Positions 1 through 41,786 are shown, counted from the stretch's first letter. The stretch: 52,531 nucleotides of DNA from Nanobdellota archaeon (GCA_022564635.1 JADFLA010000004.1:1-52531), one strand, 5' to 3'. Made by a program: numbers and translations. The notes: a model not told the origin generated them from the letters alone.

Positions 1-1977
1 TAAAAAACTGCCAATAAAGAAAGCACTCATTCCCAATAAAGTAAATACAATGCTTAAACCTAAAAAGAAAGCTATGGTCATTCCCTTAATGTTCTGTTTA
101 GAGGCTCTAAAGGAATAAGCAATATAGGCTGGAAGTATTGGCAAGGTACAAGGAGAAGCAAAAGAAACAAACCCTGCTATCAGGGCAATAATAATCAACA
201 GTAAAATCGGCCCTTGTAGTTTCTCAAGACCTTCTTCCGAGACATTAAAAGCTTGAGATGTAATTTGATTTTTTACTAATTCATCAACCCAAAAATTTTC
301 CTGTTTATCTTTCTCAAATTCCACAATTTTAATTTTGTTAATTTCATATTCTGATAATAAATTGTTTTCTATAATAAATTGTGCAGCTTTAATGAAATAA
401 TATGCACTATCAAGACCACCAATTTCCCTAATCTTATGACCAATAGTTTTAATTCCGGCATTTAAATACAAAGGCTCATTAGTCTGATCATATAATTTAA
501 GCAACGCAAATGCAATGATCCCATTTTCCTGCATAGGTTTTGATAATAATATGTTATCTCCGAGTGCATATAATTCTGTATCTGGACTATTCCTCTCAAA
601 AAATCCACCACCGTTCCAGTCATATAAATTCTCTAAACTAAAATCCGCAATTTTCCTTGCAACTTCTAAATACTCATCTTTACCCAAAACTTCATAACCC
701 TCAACAAATGCCAATAACAAATAAGAATTATCTAAAAGATTGCCTCTAACTCCTTTCTCCTTATTTTCTTTAAAGTAATGATATGCTCCATTATCACTTA
801 CCATATTTTTAGAAAAAAATTCTAATGATTTTTCTGCTATTAATTTATACTTTTTATTGCTAGTTGTCTGCCATAAATAAAGATACGTTAATATTGCATC
901 TGTGTTCCAATCAGAGTATTTTGTTTTTTCTACCCTTGGCTTGTCTGCTGGTCTTGGATATTTTCCATAGTATTCATCCTCTCCATGCACATCACTATTC
1001 CCATAAAAGCCTCCATTTAAGCTGTCATACCAATTTTTCTCAATAAAATCCAATGTTTTCTCAATTACTTCTTTAGTCAGTTCATCATTAGGTTTAATCT
1101 GCAACAAATGAAAATAAGCTTTCAACAATCTAGCATTATCATAAAGCATCTTTTCATAATGAGGTGGCGTCCATTCCCTCGTTGTACCATATCTATGAAA
1201 TCCACCATCAACAGGATCAAATAAATTATAATTTTCCTCTAACTCATCAACTTTTGTATATTGATTTTTTAATGTATTTTCAACAATTTTCAGAAACTGA
1301 TTATTTCCAGTTAATTCGTATAATTCCAAAGAAAAATCCAAAGTTCTGCCTTGTGGAAACTTCCGCCCTGTACCAAAACCACCATGCTCATTATCATAAG
1401 AGCCTAAAATAGATCCTGCAAGATTATTAATTAAATTATTAAGTTGATTTTGAGTTGGGATTATTGGATTTGATTTCTGATAGTTATACAAAACCTGGCT
1501 AGAAAAACTTTTGGAATTTACAAAATTAACCGCTTGCTGCAGATTAGCGACCATATTTGCAACAGGTCGTGGTCCAGAGTAACCAAACAGTCGTTCTCTA
1601 CTTGGTGCTATAACTGTTGTTGATGGCCAGCCACCTTCTAAGTATTGTCTTGTTAAATCCTGTCTCTTATCTGCATCAACATAAATTGGAATAAATTTTT
1701 CATTAATAATATCAACAACTTGTGGATTAAAAAGAAAATCCTCGCTTTCATATACTTGGCACCAATAACACCAAGATGGTGCTGTCAACAATAAGAAGAT
1801 TGGTTTATTTTCTTCTATAGCATCACTAAAAGCCTCAGGTCCGTAATCATACCAATTAATTAAAGGCTTAAGCTCTTCTGCATGTTCGTATGTATAATGT
1901 GATGTTGCATTAGCTATTCCAGGAAAGAATAATAAAACAAACAATACTAAAACAATATATTTGAGGTAAAGATTCAT
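1..1977 (-). CDS. Secreted thioredoxin-domain YyaL/DUF255 family protein fused to a C-terminal CcdA-type membrane domain (runs off the window edge)
   Basis: Absent from the ORF track; translated by hand from ATG 1977 (in-frame upstream ATGs at 2034/2037). Signal peptide ...FPGIANA, then INWYDYGPEAF..KPIFL..WCYWCQ, GGWPST, GGFG..KFP, DPVDGGFHRY, PHYEKMLYDNA, then ALIAGFVSFASPCTLPILPAY (CcdA). Confidence 0.88.
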   Translation of the reverse strand, partial: MNLYLKYIVLVLFVLLFFPGIANATSHYTYEHAEELKPLINWYDYGPEAFSDAIEENKPIFLLLTAPSWCYWCQVYESEDFLFNPQVVDIINEKFIPIYVDADKRQDLTRQYLEGGWPSTTVIAPSRERLFGYSGPRPVANMVANLQQAVNFVNSKSFSSQVLYNYQKSNPIIPTQNQLNNLINNLAGSILGSYDNEHGGFGTGRKFPQGRTLDFSLELYELTGNNQFLKIVENTLKNQYTKVDELEENYNLFDPVDGGFHRYGTTREWTPPHYEKMLYDNARLLKAYFHLLQIKPNDELTKEVIEKTLDFIEKNWYDSLNGGFYGNSDVHGEDEYYGKYPRPADKPRVEKTKYSDWNTDAILTYLYLWQTTSNKKYKLIAEKSLEFFSKNMVSDNGAYHYFKENKEKGVRGNLLDNSYLLLAFVEGYEVLGKDEYLEVARKIADFSLENLYDWNGGGFFERNSPDTELYALGDNILLSKPMQENGIIAFALLKLYDQTNEPLYLNAGIKTIGHKIREIGGLDSAYYFIKAAQFIIENNLLSEYEINKIKIVEFEKDKQENFWVDELVKNQITSQAFNVSEEGLEKLQGPILLLIIIALIAGFVSFASPCTLPILPAYIAYSFRASKQNIKGMTIAFFLGLSIVFTLLGMSAFFIGSFL

Positions 1978-2023
1978 TTTACTTACTTTATTGTTATCCC
2001 CACAACCTTTTTTTGCTTTTATC

Positions 2024-2515
2024 TCAACATCCATCATTAGCTTTGCATATTAAATTTTCCAAATCTTTTTTATAAACAAAAGATGGATGTATTATTTCAT
2101 CAAAGCCATTGACCTTAAGTATCAATGTTGGAACTCTTATTGCCCCATATTGAATAAATTCCTTCTCACAATTGTCAATATTAAAAAACTCCAGAGAAAA
2201 CAAATTTCCTTTCTCTTTCAACAATTGTTTTAGTATAGGATCTTGTTTTTTGCACCATGCACAAAAATCAGAATAAAAGTATTTTATATTAAAAACCGAT
2301 TCTTTGTTGCCTGCTATTGCATCAGGACACCCTTTTTCTTCTAATTTATTTATTTCGCTGAAATCAAAGCTCACTTCATTACTATTCTGGGTTATTAAAT
2401 TATTTAACTCTGCCTTATATTGATAGATAATAACTGCAATTGATATGTTTACGAATATTGCTATTATTAATATTATAGTTAAAGATGTAGTTCTTTTATT
2501 GCTTTTCTTTGACAT
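2024..2515 (-). CDS. Membrane-anchored thioredoxin-family protein
   Basis: N-terminal TM, FYSDFCAWC, RVPT cis-Pro loop. ATG 2515 preferred over TTG 2533. Confidence 0.85.
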   Translation of the reverse strand: MSKKSNKRTTSLTIILIIAIFVNISIAVIIYQYKAELNNLITQNSNEVSFDFSEINKLEEKGCPDAIAGNKESVFNIKYFYSDFCAWCKKQDPILKQLLKEKGNLFSLEFFNIDNCEKEFIQYGAIRVPTLILKVNGFDEIIHPSFVYKKDLENLICKANDGC

Positions 2516-2516
2516 T

Positions 2517-3221
2517 CTAAACAAAAATCGCAAATGCCCTATTTACAGCGATTTGATAATATATAATATAGCTGCCGGCAATTATTATTACAACAGCAGT
2601 TATAACCCTTACATATGGAAATATCCTAGAGAATTTTTTCATAATAGTAACTTTTGACATAGCAGTTATTACAGAGATGCCAACTACTCCAACAGCAGCT
2701 GCAACTGAATATATTAGGAAGATAAATATTCCATCGATAACACTACCTGTACTTAAAGCGCTTATTATTATAGCCAAAAAAACAGGTAGCGTGCAACTCA
2801 TTACTGCTAAACCATACCCTATCCCAAAAGTGTAAAAACGCAAAAAGCCGTTGTTTATTTTTTTCTTGGGTTGCAAATGAAACGGAAGCGCAAAAGAAAA
2901 ATTCTTATTAAATAACATGAAGAAACCAATAATTATCAAGACAAGCCCAACAACCAGGGTAAAGATTGGAATATAAAATTTTATAAAATTGCCAATATAA
3001 ACTATAATAGCTCCTATAATCATAAAGATGGATATTAGACCAAAAGAAACAAACAAACCATTTTTTAAGCCATTAAATAAATCCTTTTTTACATTTTTTT
3101 CACTTTTTTCCCTTCCAATGTAATAAGAAACATAGGCTGGAAGCATAGCTATGCCACATGGGCTTATGAATGTTACAAACCCTGCTGCTATTGCCACAGA
3201 TATTAAAGCCAGACTAATCAT
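2517..3221 (-). CDS. ccdA: CcdA/DsbD-type transmembrane electron transporter
   Basis: About 6 TM segments with the two conserved Cys motifs FISPCGIAMLPAY and MSCTLP. Confidence 0.9.
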   Translation of the reverse strand: MISLALISVAIAAGFVTFISPCGIAMLPAYVSYYIGREKSEKNVKKDLFNGLKNGLFVSFGLISIFMIIGAIIVYIGNFIKFYIPIFTLVVGLVLIIIGFFMLFNKNFSFALPFHLQPKKKINNGFLRFYTFGIGYGLAVMSCTLPVFLAIIISALSTGSVIDGIFIFLIYSVAAAVGVVGISVITAMSKVTIMKKFSRIFPYVRVITAVVIIIAGSYIIYYQIAVNRAFAIFV

Positions 3222-3232
3222 TTTTAAAATTT

Positions 3233-3805
3233 TTAAGCTGTTAAACCTCTAAATATTGTTTCCCATTGCTCGTCATTTAAAACCCCATAGCCGGAGTAAA
3301 GAATAATACCTTCTCTGCTTACTGCAAATTTAGCTGTTGTTCCCCTAATTCCATAATCCGTTAATACTTCCGGATAACCCGGAGCAAAAATAAAGTCATG
3401 ATTTCTACTAGTTTTATATTGGCTTAATATTTGAGCATTTTCAGTCAAATCAAGATCAATTGCTATAAACTCTACTTGGTCCTTATATTTTGGATAAACT
3501 CTATCTACAACAGCCAAATCCTGTGTACAGTAAGGACACCATGTTGCCATAAAATAAACCAAGACAGGCTTGTTTTGCGCAGTTATCTCGCTTAATTTTA
3601 TTGTATTGCCTTCTGTTGTTGTAACTATAAAGTCTGGTGCTCTAAAGTCTTTACTATTACCAACGGGTATATCCCCTATAGCACTTTGTCCTTGCTGCAC
3701 AGCACTGCTGCTTATATTAACGTTTTTAGCACAACCTGCTATAAATATCAATAAAATAACTGAAATTCCTAATAAATATTTAACAAAAATTGCTTTTAGC
3801 TTCAT
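3233..3805 (-). CDS. TlpA/ResA-like redoxin lipoprotein
   Basis: Lipobox FIAGC, APDF, YFMATWCPYC. Confidence 0.88.
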   Translation of the reverse strand: MKLKAIFVKYLLGISVILLIFIAGCAKNVNISSSAVQQGQSAIGDIPVGNSKDFRAPDFIVTTTEGNTIKLSEITAQNKPVLVYFMATWCPYCTQDLAVVDRVYPKYKDQVEFIAIDLDLTENAQILSQYKTSRNHDFIFAPGYPEVLTDYGIRGTTAKFAVSREGIILYSGYGVLNDEQWETIFRGLTA

Positions 3806-3819
3806 TTTTAATCAATCCA

Positions 3820-4449
3820 TTATTTTTTAGTTATAGTATATCCTAATATTTTGCTTAGTTCACTTTCTAAAGTTTCCAATGATGTTATCCAATTATCTTT
3901 ATATGTAATAAAACCATTTTTGTCTATCATAAATGTAGTTACTGTTTGCTTTACACCATACATTGAAGCAATTTTTGTGTCTTTATCCACTAGATGAATC
4001 CAATTTCCTCCATAAATTTTTACATACTTCTTAAAATCTTCATTGGAATCAAGTTGATAGGTATCGATTGATATAATTATTAAGCTATCTTTGTACTTTT
4101 CTTTTAGTTGCTCAAAAGCGTCTCTTTCATCAAAGGTCATTCCACACCAGGTAGCTGTAAAATCTAAGATAACTACTTTACCATTGAAATCGCTCAAGCT
4201 ATATGAATTACCCTTTATGTCCTCAAAAGAAAAATCAGGTGCTTTTTCTTCAACCTCTAGTACTGGTAAATCCTTATCATAAAGTTCTGGTATTGGCATT
4301 CCTCTAGACTTTACTTTAGCCGCATCTTTTATCAGATTTGAAATAAGTATGTTATCATCTTTACTTTGAGTTTGACAGCCAACAATAAAGAGTAACATAC
4401 CTGCCCCTACTAACAAACATGTTTTACTTAGTAATTTATTAAATGACAT
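3820..4449 (-). CDS. TlpA/ResA-like redoxin lipoprotein with CxxT active site
   Basis: Lipobox FIVGC, APDFSF..SLSDFNGKVVILDFTATWCGMT. Confidence 0.85.
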   Translation of the reverse strand: MSFNKLLSKTCLLVGAGMLLFIVGCQTQSKDDNILISNLIKDAAKVKSRGMPIPELYDKDLPVLEVEEKAPDFSFEDIKGNSYSLSDFNGKVVILDFTATWCGMTFDERDAFEQLKEKYKDSLIIISIDTYQLDSNEDFKKYVKIYGGNWIHLVDKDTKIASMYGVKQTVTTFMIDKNGFITYKDNWITSLETLESELSKILGYTITKK

Positions 4450-4484
4450 TTTATTTTCCTGATTATTTTTTTATATTGATATTT

Positions 4485-5423
4485 TTAATGCTCATGCTCA
4501 TCTCCAAAACCTGCTATTGCATCTTCTATAATATGCTCATAATACAAAGACATTCTTTTAATACTTTCTACCTTTCCATTAACGAAAAATGAAGAAGCGT
4601 TGATACCAATTTTTTCAGCAGTTTTTAAGTTATTAACAATTTCAAAAACATATTCTCTGTTTATTATGCAATTTTCAAATTTTTCAATATCAATGCCAAT
4701 CTCATCAGCATAGCTAACTAAATTTTCCTTACTACCAAAATTTTCTTTATCTTGATTTTTAAATAATAATTTGTGATATTCCCAGAACTTATTTTGCTGT
4801 TGAGCACATCTTGCAGCTAAAGCTAAATTTATAGAGTCAGGATTTGGCGCAAAATCCTTAAAAACATACCTCAATTTCCCATTATCTACAAATTCCTTAA
4901 TTATTTTCGGCTTTATTTTTTCATTAAATTCTTTGCATTCTTTACAATTAAAATCCTCAAAAACAATTAAGGTTGTAGCATCTTTGCTTCCTAATATAGG
5001 ATCTGAACTATCTACAAAATCCTCAGCTTTGAAAACTGGTTTTATTTGAAATTTGTTAAACTCTTCTTCTAATAATATCTCTGCATCATAGTAGCTTGTA
5101 AATATTTTTAAACTAATTATATCTTCTGGATTAATTAAACCAGAAATGTATTTTACTTCAGCGGTTTCAGCTTCAAGGTTGATATTAATTTCTTTAATAC
5201 CTTCTTCCGATAATAATGCTTTTTTTATTGTTGTTACACATGTAGGACAAGTCATTCCCCTTACCTTTAAATATGAAGTTTCAATTGAACCATCAAGGAC
5301 ATCATTAGAAGGTTTAGATTTTATATTATTAAAACTAAGAATAGCATAACTCCCGCCTATCATTAACAAAAGTACGAATATAAGTAAATATGTTTTGGAT
5401 TTAATTTCATTCAATTTAAACAC
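4485..5423 (-). CDS. Membrane-anchored HMA domain + DsbA/BdbD-like fusion
   Basis: TM, GMTCPTC (HMA), then DPILG..VFEDFNCKEC..AARCAQQQNKFWEYHKLLF (DsbA family). Start uncertain (GTG 5423 or TTG 5414). Confidence 0.85.
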   Translation of the reverse strand: MFKLNEIKSKTYLLIFVLLLMIGGSYAILSFNNIKSKPSNDVLDGSIETSYLKVRGMTCPTCVTTIKKALLSEEGIKEININLEAETAEVKYISGLINPEDIISLKIFTSYYDAEILLEEEFNKFQIKPVFKAEDFVDSSDPILGSKDATTLIVFEDFNCKECKEFNEKIKPKIIKEFVDNGKLRYVFKDFAPNPDSINLALAARCAQQQNKFWEYHKLLFKNQDKENFGSKENLVSYADEIGIDIEKFENCIINREYVFEIVNNLKTAEKIGINASSFFVNGKVESIKRMSLYYEHIIEDAIAGFGDEHEH

Positions 5424-6314
5424 CTATCTTACCTGCCAAAAATAAACATACATAAGATAAATCCCAACAACAATTAAAAGAGCGCTGCTTATCTTCTTGA
5501 TAGTGTTGCCAGCTATGCTAAGCTTGTTTAATAATAAATCTTTATATGAAGCGGTCATTGTTGTTACAATAACCATTGATAATCCATTTCCAATCAAAAA
5601 CGCTAAAAATCCAAATAAGCCAATTGCAAATTTTCCCAATATGAACGGTGACAAGATAACAATCAAGAAAATTGGTAATGTACATGCAGTTGAGCCAGCA
5701 GCATAAGCCATGCCAAAAAGATAAATCTTAACCTTGGGGCTCTTGATCTTGCTGGAATTTATTTTTCCCACCATACCTGATGATAATCTCTCAAATCCGA
5801 ACTTAAAATCTTTCTTCAGAAAATAACTTACACCCATAATAATAAAAACAATTCCAACTACTAATATTAAGGAATTAGTTATTGATTGTAATGATGTAGC
5901 TGCTCCAATTAAGAATAAAGGTATAGCAATTAAGACAAAGAAAGTTGACATGCCTAATGCTGCTATGAGACCTTTTCCAGCAGCTTTTCCAAAAGTTTCT
6001 TCTTTATCACCAGTTGTTATATAATATGCCATATAACTTGGGAGTATTGCTATTGAGCAAGGACACGGTGCTGAGAAAACTACTGTTCCAGCCAAAAAAC
6101 TAAATGCTAATGTAAGAATTAAAATTGAGTTATCTATATTATTTATATTGGGCAGTATAAACTTATAGTAACTGAAAATTCCTAGTCCAACTATTCCCAG
6201 AAAGATTAATGTAAGTACTAAAATAGATAGTTTGTCTTTACCAGAGCTTTTGGGCATTTTGTTATTTGCATTAGATGTATTCTTTGCTTTATTTGATTTT
6301 TTTATAATTATCAC
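5424..6314 (-). CDS. ccdA: CcdA-type transmembrane electron transporter with extra N-terminal TM
   Basis: FSAPCPCSIAILPSY and STACTLP motifs, multiple TMs. Start codon uncertain. Confidence 0.85.
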   Translation of the reverse strand: MIIIKKSNKAKNTSNANNKMPKSSGKDKLSILVLTLIFLGIVGLGIFSYYKFILPNINNIDNSILILTLAFSFLAGTVVFSAPCPCSIAILPSYMAYYITTGDKEETFGKAAGKGLIAALGMSTFFVLIAIPLFLIGAATSLQSITNSLILVVGIVFIIMGVSYFLKKDFKFGFERLSSGMVGKINSSKIKSPKVKIYLFGMAYAAGSTACTLPIFLIVILSPFILGKFAIGLFGFLAFLIGNGLSMVIVTTMTASYKDLLLNKLSIAGNTIKKISSALLIVVGIYLMYVYFWQVR

Positions 6315-6315
6315 C

Positions 6316-6855
6316 TTAAGGACCTATTTTAATGCTATTCAGAAAGTTAAGCTGCCCATTAACATCGTCCTCATTCCCGTAGCTTATCAATAATCTGTCA
6401 TTATCTTTAATAATATAATTATCGAAATCATTATTCAACTTTTCATTGACGTAAAACTTTAAATTTTTATCATCATTATTGCAATAACTATTTCCTTTGT
6501 CATCTACGAAACAATTTTCATCAAAACCCATTCCTAAAGTCTCTAAAAAATGTCCTATAGTAATTCCGGTGGCATGCTTATGGATAATTATGCCATCCAA
6601 TCCCTCAATATGTACACGTCTCGCTCTAACCATGTATTCAGGCTTTGAAAGATCAAGTACATTACCATTTATGAATATTAAAAATGCAGTATGCTCATGG
6701 GTAGAATCCCAAGGTCCTATTGATGGATCTTTCAACACATATAAAGGCCTATCAATCGGTCCTCCATGAGGGGTGGGTTGAGGTGCTCTGCAACTGGCTA
6801 AGAAAATTAAACTCAATAAAAATAACATTGATAATAACAATTTTTTATTTTTCAT
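6316..6855 (-). CDS. Histidine-motif lipoprotein of unknown function
   Basis: Lipobox LASC; HEH, VHIE and IHKHA motifs; Cys pair CF..YC. Confidence 0.75.
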   Translation of the reverse strand: MKNKKLLLSMLFLLSLIFLASCRAPQPTPHGGPIDRPLYVLKDPSIGPWDSTHEHTAFLIFINGNVLDLSKPEYMVRARRVHIEGLDGIIIHKHATGITIGHFLETLGMGFDENCFVDDKGNSYCNNDDKNLKFYVNEKLNNDFDNYIIKDNDRLLISYGNEDDVNGQLNFLNSIKIGP

Positions 6856-6880
6856 TTTCTATTTTATAATATTATTATTT

Positions 6881-7891
6881 TTATGGTGCCATAGATTGCA
6901 ACTCATCTAAACTATCTCTTATATCAATAGGAATATCTTTACCATATATTTTTTCTAATACTTCTTTGTGTCTAGGCAAATTCTCATTTACCTCTTTTAA
7001 GACCAAATCAGAAAACAACAAAAGCTGCTTTTTCTCCTTACCTTTTTCCTTGGCAGTTTTTACGAATTTTAAAGTGTTGCTGAGAGAAGCTGTATAAGCA
7101 TCTGACAGAGCTTCTTTATTTTCTTCTATCTTATTAATATTTATTAAAAAGTTCATTTCCTTTATTCTATTGTTAGCCATTAAAAACTGATTTTTGGCTT
7201 TGTAAATGACGGTGGGGGATAAAGAAAATCTAACTTGCTCAGTTTTAATTTTTGCAGGATATATGTAGGTTCCAGGAGTATAAGAAGTACCTAAATTTTC
7301 AATTAAAGATGATAATCTTAACATTAATTTTATTCTCTTTTCATTATTTTCTGGAGTTCCTTCTTTAATTTCTTTGCCTCTGCTTTCAACTTCATCCAAT
7401 AAAGAAATAATTTCATCCATCCCTTCCTTGCTCCTTATTGCAGTTAATATTTTAGCTTCTGCCTTTTGTAATGGCTCTATAGCGTACCTATAATCATAAT
7501 CTAAAACCGGGCTGCTTTCAAATTTAAAATCATCAGCTTCTCCTACTATTTTTTCTTCAACAAATTTAGCAGTATAATATCCAGAAAAAATGTCATGGTT
7601 TAAGATTTCATCTTTGCTTATTACAAAATCATTATAGTTTAAAATTGTATTTCCGGTTTCCAATTCTATAGTAGTATTAATTATACCCGGAGTACCTTCC
7701 AATGAACTTTTTACAACATTTGCGCATGCCTGGCAAACAAGACCTTTAACCTCTAATCTTAATTCTTTTATTTTTCCTTGTGTAGCTTTTTCCTCAGGAG
7801 AATTATATAGTAATAATGAAAATAGAAATATCCCCATAATAAAAACAATTCCAAATCCAATAATAAAATTAGTTATTTTTTTACCTTCCAT
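6881..7891 (-). CDS. Membrane-anchored HMA domain + helical DUF5667-like domain
   Basis: TM, GLVCQAC, then TPGTYIYPAKIKTEQVRFSLS, typical of DUF5667-like helical domains. Confidence 0.7.
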   Translation of the reverse strand: MEGKKITNFIIGFGIVFIMGIFLFSLLLYNSPEEKATQGKIKELRLEVKGLVCQACANVVKSSLEGTPGIINTTIELETGNTILNYNDFVISKDEILNHDIFSGYYTAKFVEEKIVGEADDFKFESSPVLDYDYRYAIEPLQKAEAKILTAIRSKEGMDEIISLLDEVESRGKEIKEGTPENNEKRIKLMLRLSSLIENLGTSYTPGTYIYPAKIKTEQVRFSLSPTVIYKAKNQFLMANNRIKEMNFLININKIEENKEALSDAYTASLSNTLKFVKTAKEKGKEKKQLLLFSDLVLKEVNENLPRHKEVLEKIYGKDIPIDIRDSLDELQSMAP

Positions 7892-7903
7892 TTTTAATCA
7901 TAT

Positions 7904-8881
7904 TTATATCTTTTTGTCTTCCAAAAGTTTTGCAGTGTAGCTCCATTCATATTTGGTATTTTCAGAAAAAATATCATTATTTAGAATGTCATTTTCTATT
8001 GAAGTCAAAGTAGAATCATAAACTATAGCCCCTTTACTATTTTCAAGACTTAAAATAACATCAACCACACCGGGAATATCTTTTATGTTATCTTTAATTA
8101 TTTTAATGCACGCTGGACATGTCATTCCTTTTATTTCGAGAACAGCTAAATTGTACCTTTGATTATCAAATATTTCCTCCATTCTTGAGACTTCCTCCTC
8201 AAAATTAATTTGCTTTACTTTACCATAGACATCATCACTTGTTGCAGAGGCATCTAAACTTAGAGATTTTAAACCTAATTTACTTAATTCCTTAACAAGG
8301 GTTTCATACTCTGTAGAATAAGAATCTCTGTAAGCAATTTTTCCATTTTTATCAATTAAAATTGTTGTGCCTGTAAAAGGGCTTCCATATTTTACGACAA
8401 CATTATCGGTATCGCGGGCATAAATCCAATTATCATAACCTTCTGAATATGCCCTAATAAATCTTTTTATGTCTTCGTTTGTTTCTGTAGGATCTATGTC
8501 TACAGATATAATGCTTACTTTTGGAAAATTATTCAATAATTTTCTAAAGTCATCAGTTTCAGAAATGCAAACACCGCACCATGTAGAAAATATCTCAACA
8601 ATCGCTGGATTTCCTCTAAAATCAGACAGTTTAAAGCTTTTTCCATTTACATCCGTAAGTGCGAAATCAGGAGCTTCTTTTCCAGGAGCGCTTTTAATAC
8701 CACCAGCTGCCTTTGCACTTTCTGCTAAAATAAAAGCTATAGGATCAGATTTTTTAATGTCTGGTTTATTAATATTCGTTATAGTAAAATAAATACCTAT
8801 AATAACAACTAACAAAATAAAACCTGCTGACATTCCTAACAAAAAAGTATTTTTTTCCTTTTTTTCCATCTTTAGTTCCAT
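7904..8881 (-). CDS. Membrane-anchored TlpA-like redoxin + C-terminal HMA fusion
   Basis: TM, APDFAL..FSTWCGVC, then GMTCPAC. Confidence 0.85.
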   Translation of the reverse strand: MELKMEKKEKNTFLLGMSAGFILLVVIIGIYFTITNINKPDIKKSDPIAFILAESAKAAGGIKSAPGKEAPDFALTDVNGKSFKLSDFRGNPAIVEIFSTWCGVCISETDDFRKLLNNFPKVSIISVDIDPTETNEDIKRFIRAYSEGYDNWIYARDTDNVVVKYGSPFTGTTILIDKNGKIAYRDSYSTEYETLVKELSKLGLKSLSLDASATSDDVYGKVKQINFEEEVSRMEEIFDNQRYNLAVLEIKGMTCPACIKIIKDNIKDIPGVVDVILSLENSKGAIVYDSTLTSIENDILNNDIFSENTKYEWSYTAKLLEDKKI

Positions 8882-8916
8882 ATCTACTAAAAATCAATTT
8901 ACTCCATTTCTCTTAA

Positions 8917-9141
8917 TCAGAAACAACCGCCTACTTGGTCTGGTATCTCTGCTTGTATATCAATTACACTTTTTGAGGGACTTGGGCTGCCAGTAGTAAT
9001 TTTTGTCGAGGCACTTCCTATTGAAAAGCCTCCTTCATTAAGACTATTTTTGACATTAATTAACTGTATTGCCTGCACTGTTGCTATAAGCAAAGTCACT
9101 ACAACTAAAATTAAAAGTATTTTCTCCATTTTTAACTCCAT
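8917..9141 (-). CDS. Small membrane/secreted protein ending in PDQVGGCF
   Basis: N-terminal hydrophobic segment, Ser/Thr linker, C-terminal tail shared with the upstream gene; GGAGGTG RBS upstream. Confidence 0.8.
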   Translation of the reverse strand: MELKMEKILLILVVVTLLIATVQAIQLINVKNSLNEGGFSIGSASTKITTGSPSPSKSVIDIQAEIPDQVGGCF

Positions 9142-9159
9142 TTTTGCACCTCCATGAAT

Positions 9160-10029
9160 TTAAAAACATCCACCTACCTGGTCTGGGACAACACTTGATA
9201 TATCCTGTCCTCCTAGAGCTGCTTCTACTCTCAGTTTTCCATTTCTTGAGAAAGTCTGGACATCTATTGGTATTGTTGATGGGTCCAAGCCCTGATCTAA
9301 ATAATACTTTGCCCATTTAACTGCCATACCAGGGAAAAAGTAGGCCATCCATACTCTTAACTCATCTTCTATCTGGTCTTTCGTATAACCTTGTTTTAAC
9401 AATAAGGTTGTTAAACCTCTAATTGTTCCTTTTTTAAAGCAACCACCTGCACCACCCGGGGCATTGCAAAACAAGCAACCACCTACCGCATCTTTAAAAT
9501 TATTTTCTTGAGTTCCATACATTAAATCAGCGTAAATCTTTTGTTGCTCAGAGGTTAAGTCCTTAGGTACATCTTGTCTGCCTCTGCCACCATTAGGCGG
9601 AAAGGGATCAAACTTCATAAGAATATTTCTTTTATCTAAAGTTAATTCAATTGGCTGCCCATTAACTGAAAAAGGTCTTATCTTATCTTCTTCACTTGGT
9701 AAAACCGCTGCAGCAATTTCTTGAATCGAAGCGTCACTTCCTAGATTTATGGTTCTACTAGAAATCCCAATAGAACTGCCAGTAACAGATATTGGTAAGC
9801 TAAATATCATATACTGATTAAAAGCCAGCACAAGAAACACTAAAAACATTATAATCATATACGGTTTATAGTTTACCTCCTCTTTTTTTTCATCCTCTGC
9901 ATGATGTAAAATATTATATGGTTTATGGCTAATTTTTCCCTTTTTTTTATGAAGAACATGGTATATAACCTTATTATACTCAGAACCTAATTCTTCACTT
10001 TTCTCATGATCTTTTTGGGATCCTTCCAT
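9160..10029 (-). CDS. Single-TM Cys-motif protein (CxxC...C) ending in PDQVGGCF
   Basis: His-containing N-terminus, TM, VGGCLFCNAPGGAGGCF motif; GGAGGT RBS. Confidence 0.85.
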   Translation of the reverse strand: MEGSQKDHEKSEELGSEYNKVIYHVLHKKKGKISHKPYNILHHAEDEKKEEVNYKPYMIIMFLVFLVLAFNQYMIFSLPISVTGSSIGISSRTINLGSDASIQEIAAAVLPSEEDKIRPFSVNGQPIELTLDKRNILMKFDPFPPNGGRGRQDVPKDLTSEQQKIYADLMYGTQENNFKDAVGGCLFCNAPGGAGGCFKKGTIRGLTTLLLKQGYTKDQIEDELRVWMAYFFPGMAVKWAKYYLDQGLDPSTIPIDVQTFSRNGKLRVEAALGGQDISSVVPDQVGGCF

Positions 10030-10067
10030 TTTAATTAACCTCCAAATTGAAATTGTTTATCTAGCAA

Positions 10068-11345
10068 TTAAACTTCAATAATATCATTAACCTTATTATT
10101 CGAACTACTATCATAACTCAAATCTTTATAAACAATATTCTTACCCATTGCTTCAAGACTTCTAAAAACATAGCTACCATCATCTTCCACTGTAAAAAAG
10201 TTTCCAAAACTTTTTGCAGAAGGATAATCAGAAAAATCACTTGATAATATTATAGTAGGAACTTTAGTAATAGAATATTTCTCAACTAATTCCTTGCCTT
10301 CGTCATCTGAAATATCGATCTTTTTTTCGCTATTAATATTTATGTTAATCCCTCTAGGATTTGACAAAATTTGCCTATGAATTTCTACATCATAGCAATC
10401 TAAACAACTTTTGTCTGATAGGTAAGTAACATCAACTAATCCCACCACTTTATTTTTATTTAAATCAAAATATGGCGGACTTATTGTTCTAAAAATATAG
10501 CTCCCATCATTTTCAACAGTACCTACTTGCTGCCAATCTTTAGTTATATCTTCATAAGCAGATAAATCTGAAGAAATTATTAAGGAAGGCACTTTGTCTA
10601 AGCTATACTTGGAAATAAGTGAATCTGCATTTTTTATATCAACCACTTTTTCATCTGTAATTGCAACACCTAGTTGCTTTAATTGTCGTACAAAGATTGA
10701 CAAGTCTGTGCAATTTCCACAAGTTGCATCATTTATATAAGTTAAAGAAACTCTTCCCATAATTTCATTAGAAGATGTATCAAAATATGGTGCCTTAATT
10801 CCTGTAAATATCAACGCATCGCTCTCTTTTTTTAAACCAAGATTACCTGATTTTTCTATCTCGCCAAAAACTAAAACTGTAGGAATCCTTTTAATATTGT
10901 ATTTGTTAATTAAATCCTTTGCTTTTGCAGAATTCAAATCTAAAGATTCTTCATTTGTAATTTTTACTTTATTATTTTTTATGGAATTTAGGATTTGGCT
11001 GAGATCAAAACAGTCGGTACATGCAGTGTTCTCTATTACTGTGAGCTGAATCTCTGCAGGTCTTGTTAACTCCTCAGCTTCTTCAATTTTTGCCTTAGCT
11101 GTATTTTTTAAGCCAAATGCCAAAAATAGATTTAATATTAGCAATAGGCTTAAAGCAACTACAAGCAAGTTAATTAATTTAATTCCTTTTAAATTCTCAA
11201 AAAAATTAATTTTTATTTTTTTATCATCTGGAATTTTCTCATGAACACTTTTATTATGGTGTTCATGAACATTATGATGCTTTTCCATCCCATCATGCCT
11301 ATTAGTTTGGTGATGCCCTTTTTCTGTATGGTGTTCTTTTTCCAT
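10068..11345 (-). CDS. His-rich, single-TM protein with three tandem thioredoxin-like domains
   Basis: Repeats CTDC..KRIPT, CGNC..DKVPS and CLDC..TKVPT. Confidence 0.85.
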   Translation of the reverse strand: MEKEHHTEKGHHQTNRHDGMEKHHNVHEHHNKSVHEKIPDDKKIKINFFENLKGIKLINLLVVALSLLLILNLFLAFGLKNTAKAKIEEAEELTRPAEIQLTVIENTACTDCFDLSQILNSIKNNKVKITNEESLDLNSAKAKDLINKYNIKRIPTVLVFGEIEKSGNLGLKKESDALIFTGIKAPYFDTSSNEIMGRVSLTYINDATCGNCTDLSIFVRQLKQLGVAITDEKVVDIKNADSLISKYSLDKVPSLIISSDLSAYEDITKDWQQVGTVENDGSYIFRTISPPYFDLNKNKVVGLVDVTYLSDKSCLDCYDVEIHRQILSNPRGINININSEKKIDISDDEGKELVEKYSITKVPTIILSSDFSDYPSAKSFGNFFTVEDDGSYVFRSLEAMGKNIVYKDLSYDSSSNNKVNDIIEV

Positions 11346-11373
11346 TTTATATTTTTATTTTCTCACACTTAAA

Positions 11374-11808
11374 TTAAATTTTACAACCTGTTAGATCTGC
11401 CAACCTGTTAAATGTCTGTACATTTTCATAATACTTGCCGTTAATTAACCAAGTAGGTGTTATCTTGATATTAGGATCCTCAGTAAAATCCCTGGAGTCA
11501 ATAAACCTCATAGAATTTCCAAACATTCCCTTTTGTGCATGAGTATATTGACATGCAGATGCACCATACATAATAACACCCTTCTCAGTTAAGCATTGTG
11601 CAAAACCATCCAAGGGCGCTGGCTTCAAAGTATTTAAATAACCAAAACCAATACCCACGAAAATCAAAATAATAGCAACTGAAATACTAGAAACAATTAG
11701 AATTTTTTTGTAATTTTTTGGCTTTTCTATTGTACTTTTGTCTATGTTTTGCTCTGTTTTTTGACTTTCATCCCTAATGCTTTCAATTTCATCCTTGCTT
11801 AAAGCCAT
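11374..11808 (-). CDS. Membrane-anchored thioredoxin/glutaredoxin-like protein (CxxT)
   Basis: FAQCLTEKGVIMYGASACQYT..QKGMFG..TPTWLING, resembling VKOR-associated Trx-like domains. Confidence 0.8.
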   Translation of the reverse strand: MALSKDEIESIRDESQKTEQNIDKSTIEKPKNYKKILIVSSISVAIILIFVGIGFGYLNTLKPAPLDGFAQCLTEKGVIMYGASACQYTHAQKGMFGNSMRFIDSRDFTEDPNIKITPTWLINGKYYENVQTFNRLADLTGCKI

Positions 11809-11816
11809 TTTTGAAA

Positions 11817-12035
11817 CTATAGATTACTAGGGACTGAGCCTATGCTAGCTGAACTATCACCCAAATTGTCTACAGGTGCTACTCCGCAACCACCACCTAC
11901 ATAAGGTTGTTGCTGTCCACCCTGACCCTGTTGCGCACTATAGGCTGCATACCCAGTAGAGCTGCTTTTGGTACACCCAGCCACTAACACAATCCCTACC
12001 AACAATACCACAAATAAAATTGTTTTGTACTTCAT
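11817..12035 (-). CDS. Small lipoprotein with YVGGGCGV motif
   Basis: Lipobox LVAGC and Gln/Gly-rich linker; first gene of the redox operon. Confidence 0.75.
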   Translation of the reverse strand: MKYKTILFVVLLVGIVLVAGCTKSSSTGYAAYSAQQGQGGQQQPYVGGGCGVAPVDNLGDSSASIGSVPSNL

Positions 12036-12267
12036 TTTACTGCTGGTAATCCCTCTTTTATTTATAATCGTTTCTATATTCTTACTAATAAATCATATAT
12101 TATATATAATTCATTGCGTCTATACTTAGGGAAAAAATACGTTTTTTGTCCAAAATTAGCATTAAAACGCCTTATTACCGTTCATAAAGCATTATTACCT
12201 CTTATTTAACCAAGAATAGTCCAAAAATACCTTTAAAACCTGATTTTTAAGAAGTTCAAAATAATTA

Positions 12268-12789
12268 TTAAAAATTCTCTGTCAAGAATACCTCATAAGT
12301 TTTCCCTTTTGCTTTTCTTGCTACTAAGTTCTTTTTTTCAAAATCCATAAGAATCTGGCTTACTTTTGCTTTTGATAAATTAGTTCTATACTTTAAAGTG
12401 GATTGTGTTACTCCTTCCTGTTCTTTAACAGACATTAAAACCTTTCTTTCATTCCCATCCAAAGGCCTTAGCAATAAGTTAAACTTATCTTCATCTGTCT
12501 TTTGCATTTTCTCTTCTTGAATTTTCTCTAATGCATCATTATATTTTGACACATCTACCTCACTCTTGTTAAAAAACAATAAATAAAACCCCAATGCAAA
12601 AATAAAAGACAAGACTCCAACTGCTATATGTGAGGTTCCTAATAAAGAATTTACTTGTTGGCATTCCTTGGTTGGATTGCATTGAAGCTGTTGTCCTTGT
12701 AAATTAAGCTGATTCATATAAGAAAACATAATGAAACCTAGAATAATACTCATACCTACAATTAAAAAGCCAAGTTTTTTTGTTTCCAT
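12268..12789 (-). CDS. Membrane-anchored winged-helix (MarR-like) transcription regulator
   Basis: Two TMs around a CNPTKEC loop; C-terminal GVTQSTL..LSKAKVSQILMDFEKKNLV..KGKT wHTH. Confidence 0.85.
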   Translation of the reverse strand: METKKLGFLIVGMSIILGFIMFSYMNQLNLQGQQLQCNPTKECQQVNSLLGTSHIAVGVLSFIFALGFYLLFFNKSEVDVSKYNDALEKIQEEKMQKTDEDKFNLLLRPLDGNERKVLMSVKEQEGVTQSTLKYRTNLSKAKVSQILMDFEKKNLVARKAKGKTYEVFLTENF

Positions 12790-13042: not shown

Positions 13043-13678
13043 CTAAACTGTCTTAATCTTCTTAACTAATTCCCTAGCATCTTCTTTAACGTCATCAGCA
13101 CCAACAACAGCACTAATAACAGCTACACTCTTAACTCCTTGATCTAAAACAGAATCAATATTTTTTTTATTTATCCCACCAATTGCTATCAATGGTTTAT
13201 TAATCTTATTTATAATCTGATTAATAATGTTGGTACCTACTGTATAATCCTTTGACCTTGTTTTGAATATTGGACCTATTGTAATGTAATTAGTACCTTC
13301 TTTATCCGCTTTGATAGCCTGCTCACTACTATGCGTAGACAACCCTATTATTAAATTTTTATATTTTTTATTGGAAATTTCTCTTGCACCTTTAATAGAC
13401 ATATCACTTTGTCCCAAATGAACACCATCCGCATTAATTTCCAAAGCAACATCAACATAATCATTCAAAATAAAAAGAACATTATTTTCTCTGCAAATTT
13501 TTAATAGTTTAATTGCTTCTTCTTTTATTCTATTTTTGTCCCAATTCTTTTCCCTTAATTGAATTATCTCTGCACCGCCTTTTATCGCTTCCTTAACAAT
13601 AAATTCATTGCTCCTATTTTTAGAAATAGTACTTTCTGTTATTACATATAATTTATTGTTAAAATCAAAGTTTTTCAT
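13043..13678 (-). CDS. thiE: Thiamine-phosphate synthase
   Basis: QLREK, ILND, ADGVHLGQSD, GLSTH, GPIFKT, AIGGI. Confidence 0.95.
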   Translation of the reverse strand: MKNFDFNNKLYVITESTISKNRSNEFIVKEAIKGGAEIIQLREKNWDKNRIKEEAIKLLKICRENNVLFILNDYVDVALEINADGVHLGQSDMSIKGAREISNKKYKNLIIGLSTHSSEQAIKADKEGTNYITIGPIFKTRSKDYTVGTNIINQIINKINKPLIAIGGINKKNIDSVLDQGVKSVAVISAVVGADDVKEDARELVKKIKTV

Positions 13679-13779
13679 AATAAAAAGAAATTATTTTTAT
13701 TTTTTATTTGATTATTTTTATTGTTATAATTTTTATTTTAATGGAAAAAATTTATTTGAATATCATTGTACCAAAAATT

Positions 13780-14550
13780 CTATTTAATGACACCTTCTAT
13801 CGGACTGGAAGCACTTGCATACAGTTTCTTTTGAATCCTACCAGCCAAAAAAGCGTCTCTTCCAGACTCTATAGCTGATTTCATTGCCCTTGCCATCCTT
13901 ACAGGATCCTTAGCCAATGCAACTCCAGTGTTAAGCAAAACTCCATCCGCACCCAGCTCCATTGCAATTGTAACATCCGAAGCCGTTCCAACACCAGCAT
14001 CAACAATTATTGGAACATTTGCATTCTCTATAATATTTTTTATATTGTTTGGATTCAAAATACCTTGTCCGGACCCGATTGGACTTCCAAGCGGCATAAC
14101 AGATGTTGCTCCAGCTTCCTCAATTTTCTTAGCATATATAATATCATCATTTGTATAAGCTAGAACAGTAAAACCCTCCTTAACCAAAACCTTTGTAGCC
14201 TTAAGTGTTTCCCCATTATCAGGCATTAATGTTTTTTGGTCTCCTATAACCTCTAATTTAACCCAATCTCCCATTCCTAACTCGCGAGCAAGCCTTGCAG
14301 TTCTGATTGCATCTTCCGCAGTATAACAACCAGCAGTATTCGGCAATATAGTAAGTTTATCTTTATTAATATAATTCAACAAATTTTCTTTTTCATCATC
14401 AAAATTAACCCTTCTTATTGCAACAGTAACAACTTCTGCACCACAAGCCTCATGCGCCTTTTTCATTACCTCAAAATTCTCATACTTCCCAGTACCAATA
14501 ATCAATCTGGAATTAAATTCAAACTTTCCAATTTTTAATTTGTCATCCAT
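13780..14550 (-). CDS. thiG: Thiazole synthase
   Basis: [39 protein letters not shown]. Confidence 0.97.
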
Positions 14551-14553
14551 ATA

Positions 14554-14751
14554 TTAACCACCACCTACAATAGTAACTATTTCTAATTTGTCATCATTTT
14601 TTAATATTGTATTATTAAAATTTTGTCTATGAACAATGTTTTTATTTAACTCAATAGCAACGGTATCCATTTTAAGGTTAAGAGAATTTAACAAATCTGA
14701 AATTTTTTCACATTCTAAATTCTTTTCTTCTCCATTGATTATTAATTTCAT
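14554..14751 (-). CDS. thiS: Sulfur carrier protein ThiS
   Basis: 65-aa beta-grasp protein ending VGGG, directly upstream of thiG. Confidence 0.95.
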   Translation of the reverse strand: MKLIINGEEKNLECEKISDLLNSLNLKMDTVAIELNKNIVHRQNFNNTILKNDDKLEIVTIVGGG

Positions 14752-39098: not shown

Positions 39099-41786
39099 CT
39101 ATTCAATCAAAATAGCAACTTTGCCGGGCATTGCCTGTTTTGCTTTTGGCTCTTCACTTTTCCCATCAATAATCTCAACATCACAATCAAATTCTTGTTT
39201 AAAAACGTCTAATGAATTTTTTAAGTAATCTATTTCTTTGTTTCTACCAACAACTACTTTTGGCATTTTAGTTTCATCCTTAACAAGTTTAGGAACCATT
39301 TTTGAAATTTCCTTAATATAAATATCCAAATCACTTTTAGCAAAACTCTTTATTATTTCTCCAACATTCCTTGTTTTTTCTATCTTTTTCTTTAATTTTC
39401 TAATAAAATCATATTTCCATGCTTCAGCAACAAATATTCTTATTTTACTTGGCTTATCTATTTTTGCAAGTTCTATAACAGAATAAATATCCTTTTTTGT
39501 TCTATCCAAACTATCCTCAAGAGCCTCTGCTTCTTCATCAATCTTGCTTTCATCATAGCTAGGCCATTTTTGCAAAGAAGCAAATCCTTTTAATTTCAGT
39601 TTATTCCATAATTCTTCAGAAATATGCGGTGTAAAAGGACTCAGCAACAATATAAGATTTTTGATACATTCTCCAAAAACCTTCTTATTTTTTTCATTAT
39701 ATTTTTGAAGTGCATTTACAAATTCCATTATACTGCCTATTGCAATATTATACTTAAAGTTATTAATATTCTCTGTAACATTCTTTATGGTAATATGCAT
39801 TTTATTCAAAATAAATTTGTCTTTTTCGTTCAAACTTTTATATTTGGAATCTATTTTAATATCTTTAAGATTTTCATTAACCAGATTGTAAACTCTATTC
39901 AAGAACCTGAAAGCACCACTTACACCTTTATCGTTCCAATCCAGTTCCTTTTCAGGCATAGCAGCAAATAAAATAAATAATCTTCCAGTATCAGGTCCAT
40001 ATTTTCCTGTTATTTCTGTAGGATCAACTACATTGCCAATACTTTTGCTCATTTTTGCTCCATCCTTAATGACCATGCCTTGCGTCATAAGTCTAGTAAA
40101 AGGTTCATCAACATCCACTAAACCCAAATCCCTCAACGCTTTTGTAAAGAATCTGGCATAAAGTAAGTGCAAAATAGCATGTTCTATGCCGCCAATATAT
40201 TGGTTAACAGGCATCCAATAATTCGCAATTTTTTTGTCAAAAGGACCTTTGTTATATTTTGGACTGCAATACCTTATGAAATACCATGAACTGTCAACAA
40301 AAGTATCCATTGTATCTGTTTCCCTTCTTGCTTTGCTTTTACATTCAGGACATTTTGCTTCAACAAATTTCTTAGAGGTCTCTAAAGGATTTCCAGAACC
40401 TGTGAACTTAACATTCTTTGGGAGTTTAACTGGTAATCTCTCATATGGCACAGGAACAACACCACATTTATCACAATAAATCATTGGAATAGGTGTTCCC
40501 CAATATCTTTGTCTAGAAATTAACCAATCTCTTAATTTATATTGCACTGTTCTTTTTCCATAATTATTTTTCTCCATCCATTTTGATATTGGTTCAATAG
40601 CTTCTCTATTGTTCATACCAGAAAATCTTCCAGAATCAAATAGTATTCCGTCCTCTGTATAAGCTCGGCTTGCCTTATCCGCATCTATTTTGCTTCCGTC
40701 TTCAGAAATCACAAATTTTAATGGAATTTTATATTTTCTCGCAAATTCAAAATCCCTTTGGTCATGAGCATCAGCCATTACTATTCCAGTCCCATATTCC
40801 ATTATGACAAAATTCGCAAGATATATGGGAATTTCTTCTCCATTAACAGGATTTATTGTATATTTGCCAACAAAACATCCTATCTTATCCTTTCCTTCTG
40901 GAGTAGTCCTTTCCGCTAATGATTGCTTTTTGATTTTTTTTATTGTCTCTAAGACTTCTTTTTCATATTTCGTTCCTTTAACCCATTCCAAAACCAATGG
41001 ATGCTCGGGTGAAATAACAATAAATGTTACACTATAAATTGTATCTGGTCTTGTTGTAAAAGTTGGAATTACTTGTCCACTATCTTTTAATTTAAAGAAA
41101 ATGTCAACACCATAACTTTTCCCAATCCAATTCCGCTGCATTACTTTAACTCTTTCTGGCCAGTGCTCCAACTTATCCAAATCCTCTAAAAGCTGGTCAG
41201 CATATTTTGTTATCTTAAAAAACCATTGCTCAAGCTCTTTTTCTCCAACATCATTTTTGCATCTCCAGCATTTACCATCCTCAACCTGCTCGTTTGCCAG
41301 CACTGTAGTGCAGGAATTACACCAGTTCACAACTGCATTCTTTCTGTAAGCAAGTCCTTTTTCATAAAATTTTAAGAAAATCCATTGGTTCCACTTGTAA
41401 TAATCTTCTGTGCAGCTCTGTATCTGTCTGCTCCAGTCATAACTAAAACCTAGGCTTTGTTGCTGTTTTTTTATCTGATTAATATTATCCCAAGTCCACT
41501 TTTCCGGATCAACTTTATTTTTTATTGCAGCGTTTTCCGCTGGTAATCCAAAAGCATCATAACCCATTGGATAAAGAACATTATAACCATTCATTCTTTT
41601 AAATCTTGCAAGAGCATCACCTAAAGAATAATTTCGCAAATGACCCATATGTAATGTATTGCTTGGGTAGGGATACATTTCTAAACAATAGAACTTCTTC
41701 TTTTTCTTATCCTCTTTAACCTTAAATATATTCTTATCTTCCCACTTCTTCTGCCATTTCTTAGCTATTTTGTTGAAGTCTACCAT
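39099..41786 (-). CDS. leuS: Leucine--tRNA ligase (bacterial-type core, archaeal-type C-terminus)
   Basis: [57 protein letters not shown]; ends [14 protein letters not shown]. Confidence 0.96.

Follow-up and report, generated by a model that had tools for sequence, protein, structure and literature searches.

What is a closely packed set of genes for surface redox and metal-binding proteins doing in a Nanobdellota archaeon? The set stands at the start of the 52,531-nucleotide stretch JADFLA010000004.1:1-52531 of assembly GCA_022564635.1 (1.43 Mb in 74 contigs, 87% complete), hereafter the window, which is the whole of one contig (C67). The host is an archaeon, since the window encodes archaeal-type ribosomal proteins S9, L13, L18e, S11, S4 and S13 and RNA polymerase subunit D. 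On balance, with only slightly more conviction than doubt, we read the sixteen open reading frames (ORFs; G01 to G16, Table 1) as an extracytoplasmic island for copper (thiophilic-metal) capture and thiol repair. The conserved heart of the cluster is its Gly-Gly-Cys proteins, a point that an earlier, sequence-only reading of this DNA had missed.

The sixteen ORFs lie on the minus strand between positions 1 and 12789. Neighbours overlap or stand no more than 38 nt apart, the single exception being the 232 nt between G02 and G01. The sequence-only reading had counted fifteen; its picture of a packed cluster of surface redox and metal genes holds, with every product carrying a membrane anchor, a signal or a lipobox (the last in G02, G09, G12 and G13) and at least one hydrophobic segment detected in 16/16 by a Kyte-Doolittle scan. 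Its inventory was also correct by Pfam and phmmer: three CcdA proteins, about nine thioredoxin folds, three heavy-metal-associated (HMA) domains, His-rich segments, found at the N-termini of G04 and G05, and Gly-Gly-Cys motifs, found in G02, G05 and G06. The cluster is incomplete, as the first base of the window is the first base of the contig and the cut therefore falls inside G16, whose 3′ end is open. Three of the four HMA domains and three of the at least seven CcdA-like genes of the whole assembly are concentrated in 0.9% of its length, which is more than chance would give. Pfam scans found no family for G02, G03, G05, G06 and G09, and an NCBIfam scan of G03, G05, G09, G10 and four neighbour families returned no match.

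G05 (289 amino acids) and G06 (74 amino acids) share a C-terminal motif of nine residues, the penultimate of which is Cys and which no other protein in the whole assembly has. Close relatives of G05 amount to 19 proteins among 5.8 billion, and a second search, of 1.84 billion, retrieved 22 representative clusters at E≤0.001. With a profile built on the common type of the family, in turn, at least 2,319 proteins matched at E≤1e-5, every named one of which is called hypothetical. The names of family members point to Woesearchaeota, Aenigmarchaeota and Nanoarchaeota. C185, C188 and C197 (G05 numbering) are invariant in 30/30 aligned members and a Gly-Gly-Cys-type C-terminal tail is present in 26 of them. 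The common type has a cluster of five Cys and one His, and the branch found in the window has three Cys plus the tail Cys. Pfam at E≤10 gave only scattered single matches on the 14 members of one alignment (A1), searching PDB sequences with an HMM of A1 produced a single, chance-level match (E 1.2), and the protein atlas placed G05 only among unnamed clusters with scores of at most 0.83, to be taken as a lead only. Among the titles listed in literature searches on the tail motif and on copper in DPANN archaea (Diapherotrites, Parvarchaeota, Aenigmarchaeota, Nanoarchaeota, Nanohaloarchaeota), none dealt with the G05/G06 family, and none of those listed dealt with a DPANN CcdA system.

Which fold does this family adopt? 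Two models made from different alignments, an AlphaFold2 (AF2) model of G05 with a mean predicted local distance difference test (pLDDT) of 76.6 and a model of a 23%-identical member with 88.1 (80-84 in the tail), were each aligned to 48,161 PDB representatives. Both found the same best match, CcmH of Pseudomonas aeruginosa (2hl7_A), with Z 6.1 and a root-mean-square deviation (rmsd) of 3.0 over 80/82 residues for G05 (next row 3.9), and Z 6.2 and rmsd 2.8 over 75/82 residues for the second model, whose next rows were matches of transmembrane (TM) helices with Z≤4.8. This CcmH has a single TM helix and a periplasmic three-helix bundle, whose redox CxxC stands in the loop that joins the first helix to the second (PMC3884852). 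At the sequence level, hhalign aligned the invariant Cys pair to the CxxC of Escherichia coli CcmH, weakly (E 0.0071, probability 5.5%), and 3/10 distant members gave sub-threshold Pfam CcmH matches (E 0.003-0.02, 14-17 bits against a cut-off of 25); PF03918 (CcmH) matched none of the 14 A1 members at E≤10 and nothing in the own genome at E≤1. G05 may be called CcmH-like in fold in a modest sense, and we do not file it under the CcmH family because a Z of about 6 is modest, the hhalign match is weak and Foldseek returned nothing significant. One distant relative of 344 amino acids (P0027) carries an N-terminal MerC fusion (PF03203, 33.1 bits against a cut-off of 27.6, E 8.8e-8). A complex prediction of G05 (residues 50-289) with G06 gave no answer (score 0.02) and weighs neither way on binding.

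In what company is the family found elsewhere? Of 401 genomes sampled from the phylum of this archaeon, 24 match the G05-family profile, and we compared 22 loci: about 18 kb around 20 matches in relatives, the window, and a metagenome locus (L006) with a close G05 of 53% identity. The relatives are kin and not independent samples, and neighbouring families were assigned by BLAST clustering with one Pfam-scanned representative each. In 12/20 genomes a heavy-metal ATPase lies within 10 kb of the G05-like gene, and in a thirteenth at 10.6 kb; as an estimate of chance, a window of ±10 kb covers about 2-4% of these 0.5-1.6 Mb genomes. The ATPases are mostly single-copy, 19 genes in 18/20 relatives exceeding the TIGR01525 cut-off, and all ten linked ones that were tested also exceed that of the copper subfamily, TIGR01511. 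Further clusters recur in these islands: DUF411/CopG in 8 loci (E 8.2e-25 for the representative scanned), ArsR, DUF5676 and a Met-rich secreted protein in 6 loci each, and a PadR regulator with a Cys-rich C-terminus in 4. The metal handling proposed by the sequence-only reading is supported by a core that in relatives adjoins a copper-type P1B ATPase, mostly the only one of its genome. That reading had also held that it would be refuted by a continuation of the cluster into a standard copA operon. Such linkage is what we find in relatives, though not in this assembly, and the missing clients are therefore a feature of this genome or assembly and not of the system.

Several further unannotated families with paired Cys occur in the islands of relatives (L032-L051): the membrane proteins c4, c5, c16 and c25; c7, which is soluble and has a Cys-Cys motif at its end; and c15, a small Cys/His protein. 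Those that were scanned gave no Pfam or NCBIfam match.

On sequence evidence, G01, G05 and G06 form a conserved DPANN module. Tail peptides of the G06 type occur in 21/22 loci, as one to three small ORFs per locus in 20 of the 21 loci other than the window, and in alignments these peptides and the G05-like proteins have a polar motif in common where the TM helix ends. Homologues of G01 are present in 16/22 loci, which supports the earlier idea that the cluster has its own membrane sensor, in a G01-G05-G06 core that recurs across the phylum. G01 matches DUF7343 (E 2.1e-7) and MarR (E 1.1e-5), its TM segments span residues 6-24 and 49-67, and both Cys of the outward loop are kept in 16/17 aligned sequences. 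The gap between G01 and G02 contains three 21-nt direct repeats of 76-100% identity (12148-12168, 12219-12239 and 12254-12274), which may be an operator.

The remaining companions are less widespread. G02 gave phmmer matches in 6/24 short loci, and homologues with the Gly-Gly-Gly-Cys motif are found in L033 and L045. G03 has homologues in 4 loci, adjoins G04 in L032, L033 and L045, and has a further homologue in L035; C-x-Y-T is kept in the 4/4 sequences aligned, the L035 homologue being outside the alignment. Homologues of G04/G09 occur in 9/22 loci. Five His are kept in the G09 family, the longer relatives of which carry an extra Cys-x2-Cys-Gly-Met segment; a paralogue lies in the own genome (C29:12031-12537), and the atlas neighbours of G09 are unnamed archaeal clusters only.

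As for the close relatives of the window G05, scans of genome contigs and of metagenome contigs gave one related locus each, so that their neighbourhood rests on L005, L006 and the window. L006, nearly identical to L005 and arranged in the same way, contains two CcdA genes and a small thioredoxin, besides G05, G06, a G04 fused to the G09 domain, an orthologue of G07 (TlpA plus HMA; E 1.7e-81) and a CcdA orthologous to G14 (E 5.2e-63). The pairing of the divergent G05 with a relay of CcdA and TlpA-HMA proteins therefore recurs once outside this genome. L006 also encodes an archaeal-type bifunctional PGI/PMI over cut-off (TIGR02128) and a VanW/PG_binding_4/G5 protein.

The second layer of the cluster is made of thiol-redox proteins. 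Proteins of the CcdA/DsbD type have about six TM helices with one conserved Cys per half, and draw their electrons from thioredoxin and thioredoxin reductase in the cytoplasm. G14 matches PF13386 (DsbD_2) with 35.1 bits (cut-off 24.9). No Pfam match at E≤0.01 was obtained for G10 or for the C-terminus of G16, both of which resemble G14 by phmmer (E 4.8e-19 and 1.1e-6, respectively). G10 and G14 each show six hydrophobic segments with a Cys in the first and the fourth, and G16 is cut after two helices. Pfam supports nine thioredoxin-fold domains, three in G04 and one each in G07, G11, G12, G13, G15 and G16, and motif reading alone suggests a possible tenth in G03. G04, which contains 12 His, matches thioredoxin families with E of about 6e-8, and its three internal CxxC repeats stand at z 15-22 against shuffles. 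The HMA domains (PF00403) of G07, G08 and G11 score 36.9, 26.7 and 44.1 bits against a cut-off of 24.8, each with a CxxC, and are predicted to face outward; those of G07 (E 4.9e-9) and G11 (E 2.7e-11) have the form Gly-Met-Thr-Cys-x-x-Cys, which is common to MerP and CopZ. In G07 the HMA domain is joined to an AhpC-TSA domain (E 8.3e-18) and in G11 to PF13462 (Thioredoxin_4/DSBA, E 2.3e-26), while G08 also matches DUF5667 with 26.1 bits, slightly below cut-off. No VKOR over cut-off that could oxidise the DsbA-like G11 was found in the assembly; this fits a reductive, ScsC-like role for the protein.

Table 1. Features of the cluster at the start of the window, with positions counted from its first base.
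Feature	Position	Strand	Remarks
G01: membrane-tethered one-component regulator	12268-12789	-	TM1, outward loop with Cys pair, TM2, cytoplasmic winged helix-turn-helix (wHTH)
G01/G02 intergenic region; candidate operator or promoter	12036-12267	-	three copies of 21-nt direct repeat
G02: small lipoprotein, internal Gly-Gly-Gly-Cys motif	11817-12035	-	lipobox at residue 18
G03: TM-anchored small domain, CxxT replacing CxxC	11374-11808	-	thioredoxin-like by motif reading alone
G04: His-rich cytoplasmic N-terminus, one TM, three thioredoxin-like CxxC repeats	10068-11345	-	
G05: His-rich N-terminus, TM, CcmH-like helical domain, three invariant Cys, C-terminal Gly-Gly-Cys-Phe	9160-10029	-	
G06: 74-residue anchored peptide with G05-type tail motif	8917-9141	-	
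G07: TM, TlpA/redoxin domain (CxxC), HMA (CxxC)	7904-8881	-	
G08: TM, HMA (CxxC), helical domain	6881-7891	-	
G09: lipoprotein, conserved HxH...H...HxH and Cys pair	6316-6855	-	
G10: CcdA-like six-TM protein, Cys in TM1 and TM4	5424-6314	-	
G11: TM, HMA (CxxC), DsbA/ScsC-type Thioredoxin_4 domain (CxxC)	4485-5423	-	
G12: TlpA-like lipoprotein with CxxT	3820-4449	-	AhpC-TSA E 4.3e-19; lipobox
G13: TlpA-like lipoprotein with CxxC	3233-3805	-	AhpC-TSA E 1.7e-13, Thioredoxin E 4.7e-9
G14: CcdA (DsbD_2)	2517-3221	-	PF13386 E 1.7e-8
G15: TM-anchored thioredoxin (CxxC)	2024-2533	-	PF00085 E 8.5e-6
G16: signal, DUF255 thioredoxin-like domain (CxxC), alpha/alpha-barrel-like region, fused CcdA	1-2037	-	PF03190 E 1e-20

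How might these parts work together? We propose a model with two layers in which metal capture would be coupled to thiol repair, most probably against copper; every biochemical step in it is inferred, and so are the way in which electrons run, the metal that is handled in this genome and the part played by G01. The first, conserved in DPANN archaea, would consist of G01, G05, G06 and G02, accompanied by G03, G04 and the His-rich G09, and in it the TM-anchored G06 and the lipoprotein G02 would present a thiol of the G05 Gly-Gly-Cys type at the surface. The second would be a relay resembling the bacterial Scs system, in which G10, G14 and G16 would carry electrons outward to G07, G11, G12, G13 and G15. 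This relay would keep the CxxC sites of the HMA domains and the Gly-Gly-Cys thiols reduced, and these sites could then bind Cu(I) at the cell surface, where it would be handed between the tethered thiolates and the Cys cluster of G05, or sequestered. The same oxidoreductases would resolve wrong disulfides made by copper catalysis, and G01, with its outward Cys pair as the sensor of the metal or of oxidation, might control the operon.

Several findings weigh against this model. The HMA domains and Cys tails would equally bind Hg, Cd or Zn. The copper markers of the relatives are absent here: no P1B ATPase, of the TIGR01511 type or another, was found in the window or the assembly, nor were DUF411 or a Met-rich protein in the assembly, which is 87% complete and in which the cluster is cut at a contig end. 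No thioredoxin reductase (TIGR01292) exceeds its cut-off, the best match having 57 bits; the genome does encode two class-I pyridine-nucleotide disulfide oxidoreductases (C21:17163-18584 and C17:20505-21863). The window G05 belongs to a rare divergent branch, the searches having yielded just the 19 close proteins and 22 clusters, a same-genus genome has no G05-family match, and CcdA and TlpA genes stand beside the core in just 3/20 relatives. As to the fold, a Z of about 6 (below 8) is under the level that the tool's own note gives as safe for helical matches, and Foldseek against the PDB found nothing at E≤0.001 with either model.

These gaps leave room for other explanations, of which one dispenses with metal specificity: the cluster would be a general Dsb-like system for folding, isomerisation and oxidative repair of the surface proteome of an episymbiont, and the HMA and Gly-Gly-Cys parts would be redox modules or substrates. 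We regard it as unlikely, though worth keeping in view, for thiol-redox genes are indeed abundant in this genome, which has at least seven CcdA-like genes in all and, beyond the cluster, many TlpA paralogues, and the assembly yielded neither a copper ATPase nor CopG nor a Met-rich protein. CcdA-thioredoxin lipoprotein systems that repair oxidative-stress damage are reportedly known. One locus elsewhere (L063; C45 2381-6926) holds a thioredoxin, a CcdA, a TlpA with a Thioredoxin_10 C-terminal domain, another TlpA and DUF3179; another (L062; C44, about 4900-8900) combines a DsbD_TM protein and a CcdA-like gene with a 90-residue CopZ-like HMA protein, two ArsR-like genes and a membrane protein of the MauE family that has a Cys motif near its N-terminus. 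Against a purely redox function stand the presence of three of the four HMA domains of the genome within the cluster, the His-rich tails of G04 and G05 and the conserved His of G09, and the linkage of the core to copper ATPases in 12/20 relatives. MsrA (PMSR), moreover, is found on C26 only, away from the cluster, in a search that left MsrB aside. That the metal here is another soft one (Hg, Cd, Zn or As), held by surface thiol ligands like those of MerP and MerT without being reduced, seems improbable to us. It would suit the MerC fusion of the distant G05 relative, the MerP/CopZ-like motif described above for G07 and G11, the lack of a copper ATPase in the assembly and the occurrence of this DNA in marine sediment metagenomes (0.97 and 0.81 of the sampled words in two DNA runs of one study, which may stem from the source sample; the run search listed no RNA). 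Against it, in relatives CopG lies nearby and the linked ATPases are of the copper type in every one of the ten cases tested, and Pfam scans found no match to MerC or MerT among the cluster proteins. A canonical mer system was rejected, with no MerA (TIGR02053) over cut-off: the best two matches, generic class-I disulfide oxidoreductases, score 369 and 358 bits against 454.

Could the Gly-Gly-Cys tails be there to be processed? G05-like proteins might recognise them on one to three small peptides and modify, cross-link or attach these, which could yield, for example, a copper-binding peptide that is secreted or tethered. No function is known for the family, 20 of the 21 other loci have small ORFs with this C-terminus beside the G05-like gene, and the polar motif at the TM end is common to both partners. 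This idea has to contend with the fact that G05 bears the tail itself, that the islands have no protease, exporter or known modifying enzyme among their conserved genes, and that the fold match is to a thiol oxidoreductase; we rate it a shade below the preceding one. A cytochrome c thioreduction branch, as a remnant or variant running from CcdA through a CcmG-like TlpA to a CcmH-like G05, has the fold of G05, the TlpA/CcmG-type redoxins and the CcdA proteins in its favour, and we give it hardly any credence. The assembly has no PF01578 (the CcsA/CcmC/CcmF family), no ResB and no CcmH Pfam match, and the family sits in copper islands in relatives. A single CxxCH occurs in 11 ORFs genome-wide, none of them cytochrome-like by motif reading and several resembling zinc-ribbon or HNH types, and no multi-CxxCH ORF was found; cytochrome c maturation was rejected on these absences. 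The sequence-only reading, which had found the usual clients of CcdA missing from the window, was right in so far as CcsA, ResB, cytochrome c and a P1B ATPase were not found assembly-wide, and needs amending in that a copper ATPase is present beside the core in relatives. In the assembly, PF00122 matches C30 and, weakly, C66 only; the one complete P-type ATPase, on C30, has DKTGT without a CPC motif or an HMA domain, and a fragment of the same type lies at the start of C44.

The proposed island for copper capture and thiol repair has counterparts among known systems, none of which covers it entirely. For outward HMA domains one parallel is Mer, in which outward HMA CxxC domains and Cys-pair membrane proteins (MerP, MerT, MerC) pass a soft metal by thiol exchange; the cluster has both kinds of protein, and a distant G05 relative is fused to MerC, whereas this genome has no MerA over cut-off and the cluster no MerT or MerC match. 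Islands of CopA, CopZ and CopG resemble the core of the relatives, which lies beside a TIGR01511-type ATPase with HMA, DUF411/CopG and ArsR-type regulators; the window differs in having neither ATPase nor CopG and a large set of thiol reductases instead, and its HMA domains are predicted to face outward and not the cytoplasm. From System I of cytochrome c maturation (CcmH, CcmG, DsbD), CcmH (2hl7_A) is the best fold match, at a modest Z, for G05 and the distant member, with the Cys pair weakly aligned in register. In contrast to CcmH, G05 has extra invariant Cys, a C-terminal Cys tail, an added N-terminal subdomain and no Pfam CcmH match, and in contrast to System I there are no heme-handling partners or cytochromes in the genome and the context in relatives is copper resistance.

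For the redox layer the closest parallel is Scs (ScsABCD of Salmonella, Proteus and Caulobacter), described as copper-induced DsbD-like, DsbA-like and membrane TlpA-like proteins with Cu(I) binding (PMC10907172). In both, electrons would pass from a DsbD/CcdA conduit to a DsbA-like protein of the Thioredoxin_4 family and to a TlpA-like reductase anchored in the membrane; by domain content these roles would fall to G10/G14/G16, to G11 and to G07/G13, respectively. The likeness is one of domain content, and the CcdA of G16 carries a different outward domain, DUF255. The cluster is furthermore archaeal, has three CcdA genes against one ScsB and HMA fusions on three proteins, and includes G05/G06/G02, G09 and a membrane wHTH regulator, which are not met with in the Scs descriptions consulted. 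The claim that the system is undescribed accordingly stands for the G05, G06 and G01 families and falls for the CcdA-TlpA-DsbA layer.

Elsewhere in the window, just upstream of G01, ThiE-, ThiG- and ThiS-like genes of thiamine synthesis are read from the sequence alone (13043-14751, minus strand). The leucyl-tRNA synthetase at 39099-41786 (minus strand) scores as bacterial, with 1026.8 bits for TIGR00396 against a cut-off of 548 and 300.6 bits, below the cut-off of 648, for the archaeal model TIGR00395, which suggests gene transfer into an archaeal genome. Ribosomal protein S4 (44663-45481, minus strand) has 272 residues, of which the archaeal uS4 models span 1-176, leaving a C-terminal extension of about 95 residues.

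What does the cluster mean for DPANN archaea? Their genomes are tiny and they live on other cells, so the genes that they retain are informative. The conserved layer of the proposed copper and thiol-repair island is new, with its CcmH-like Cys-tail protein, tethered peptides bearing the same thiol, and membrane wHTH protein with outward Cys. As a bolder proposal, which we regard as possible and short of probable, the G05-like proteins and Gly-Gly-Cys peptides might be a new extracytoplasmic metallochaperone device of DPANN archaea and a few other lineages, in which Cu(I), or some other soft metal, would move between a Cys-cluster domain derived from CcmH and 'fishing-line' peptides ending in a single C-terminal thiolate, under the control of a membrane wHTH regulator with an outward Cys pair. 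In the present genome the device would be joined to a threefold CcdA relay and may replace an ATPase for copper export, none having been found. Its position beside a copper ATPase in 12 of the 20 relatives gives a family of at least 2,319 unannotated proteins, with partner peptides and a dedicated membrane regulator, a testable role in metal homeostasis, and the link between copper stress and envelope thiol repair known from bacterial Scs gains an archaeal counterpart. The fold of CcmH, known from cytochrome c maturation, suggests re-use in organisms without cytochromes, and the tail peptides, if they do act as tethered single-thiolate ligands, would represent a new way of handling metals at the cell surface.

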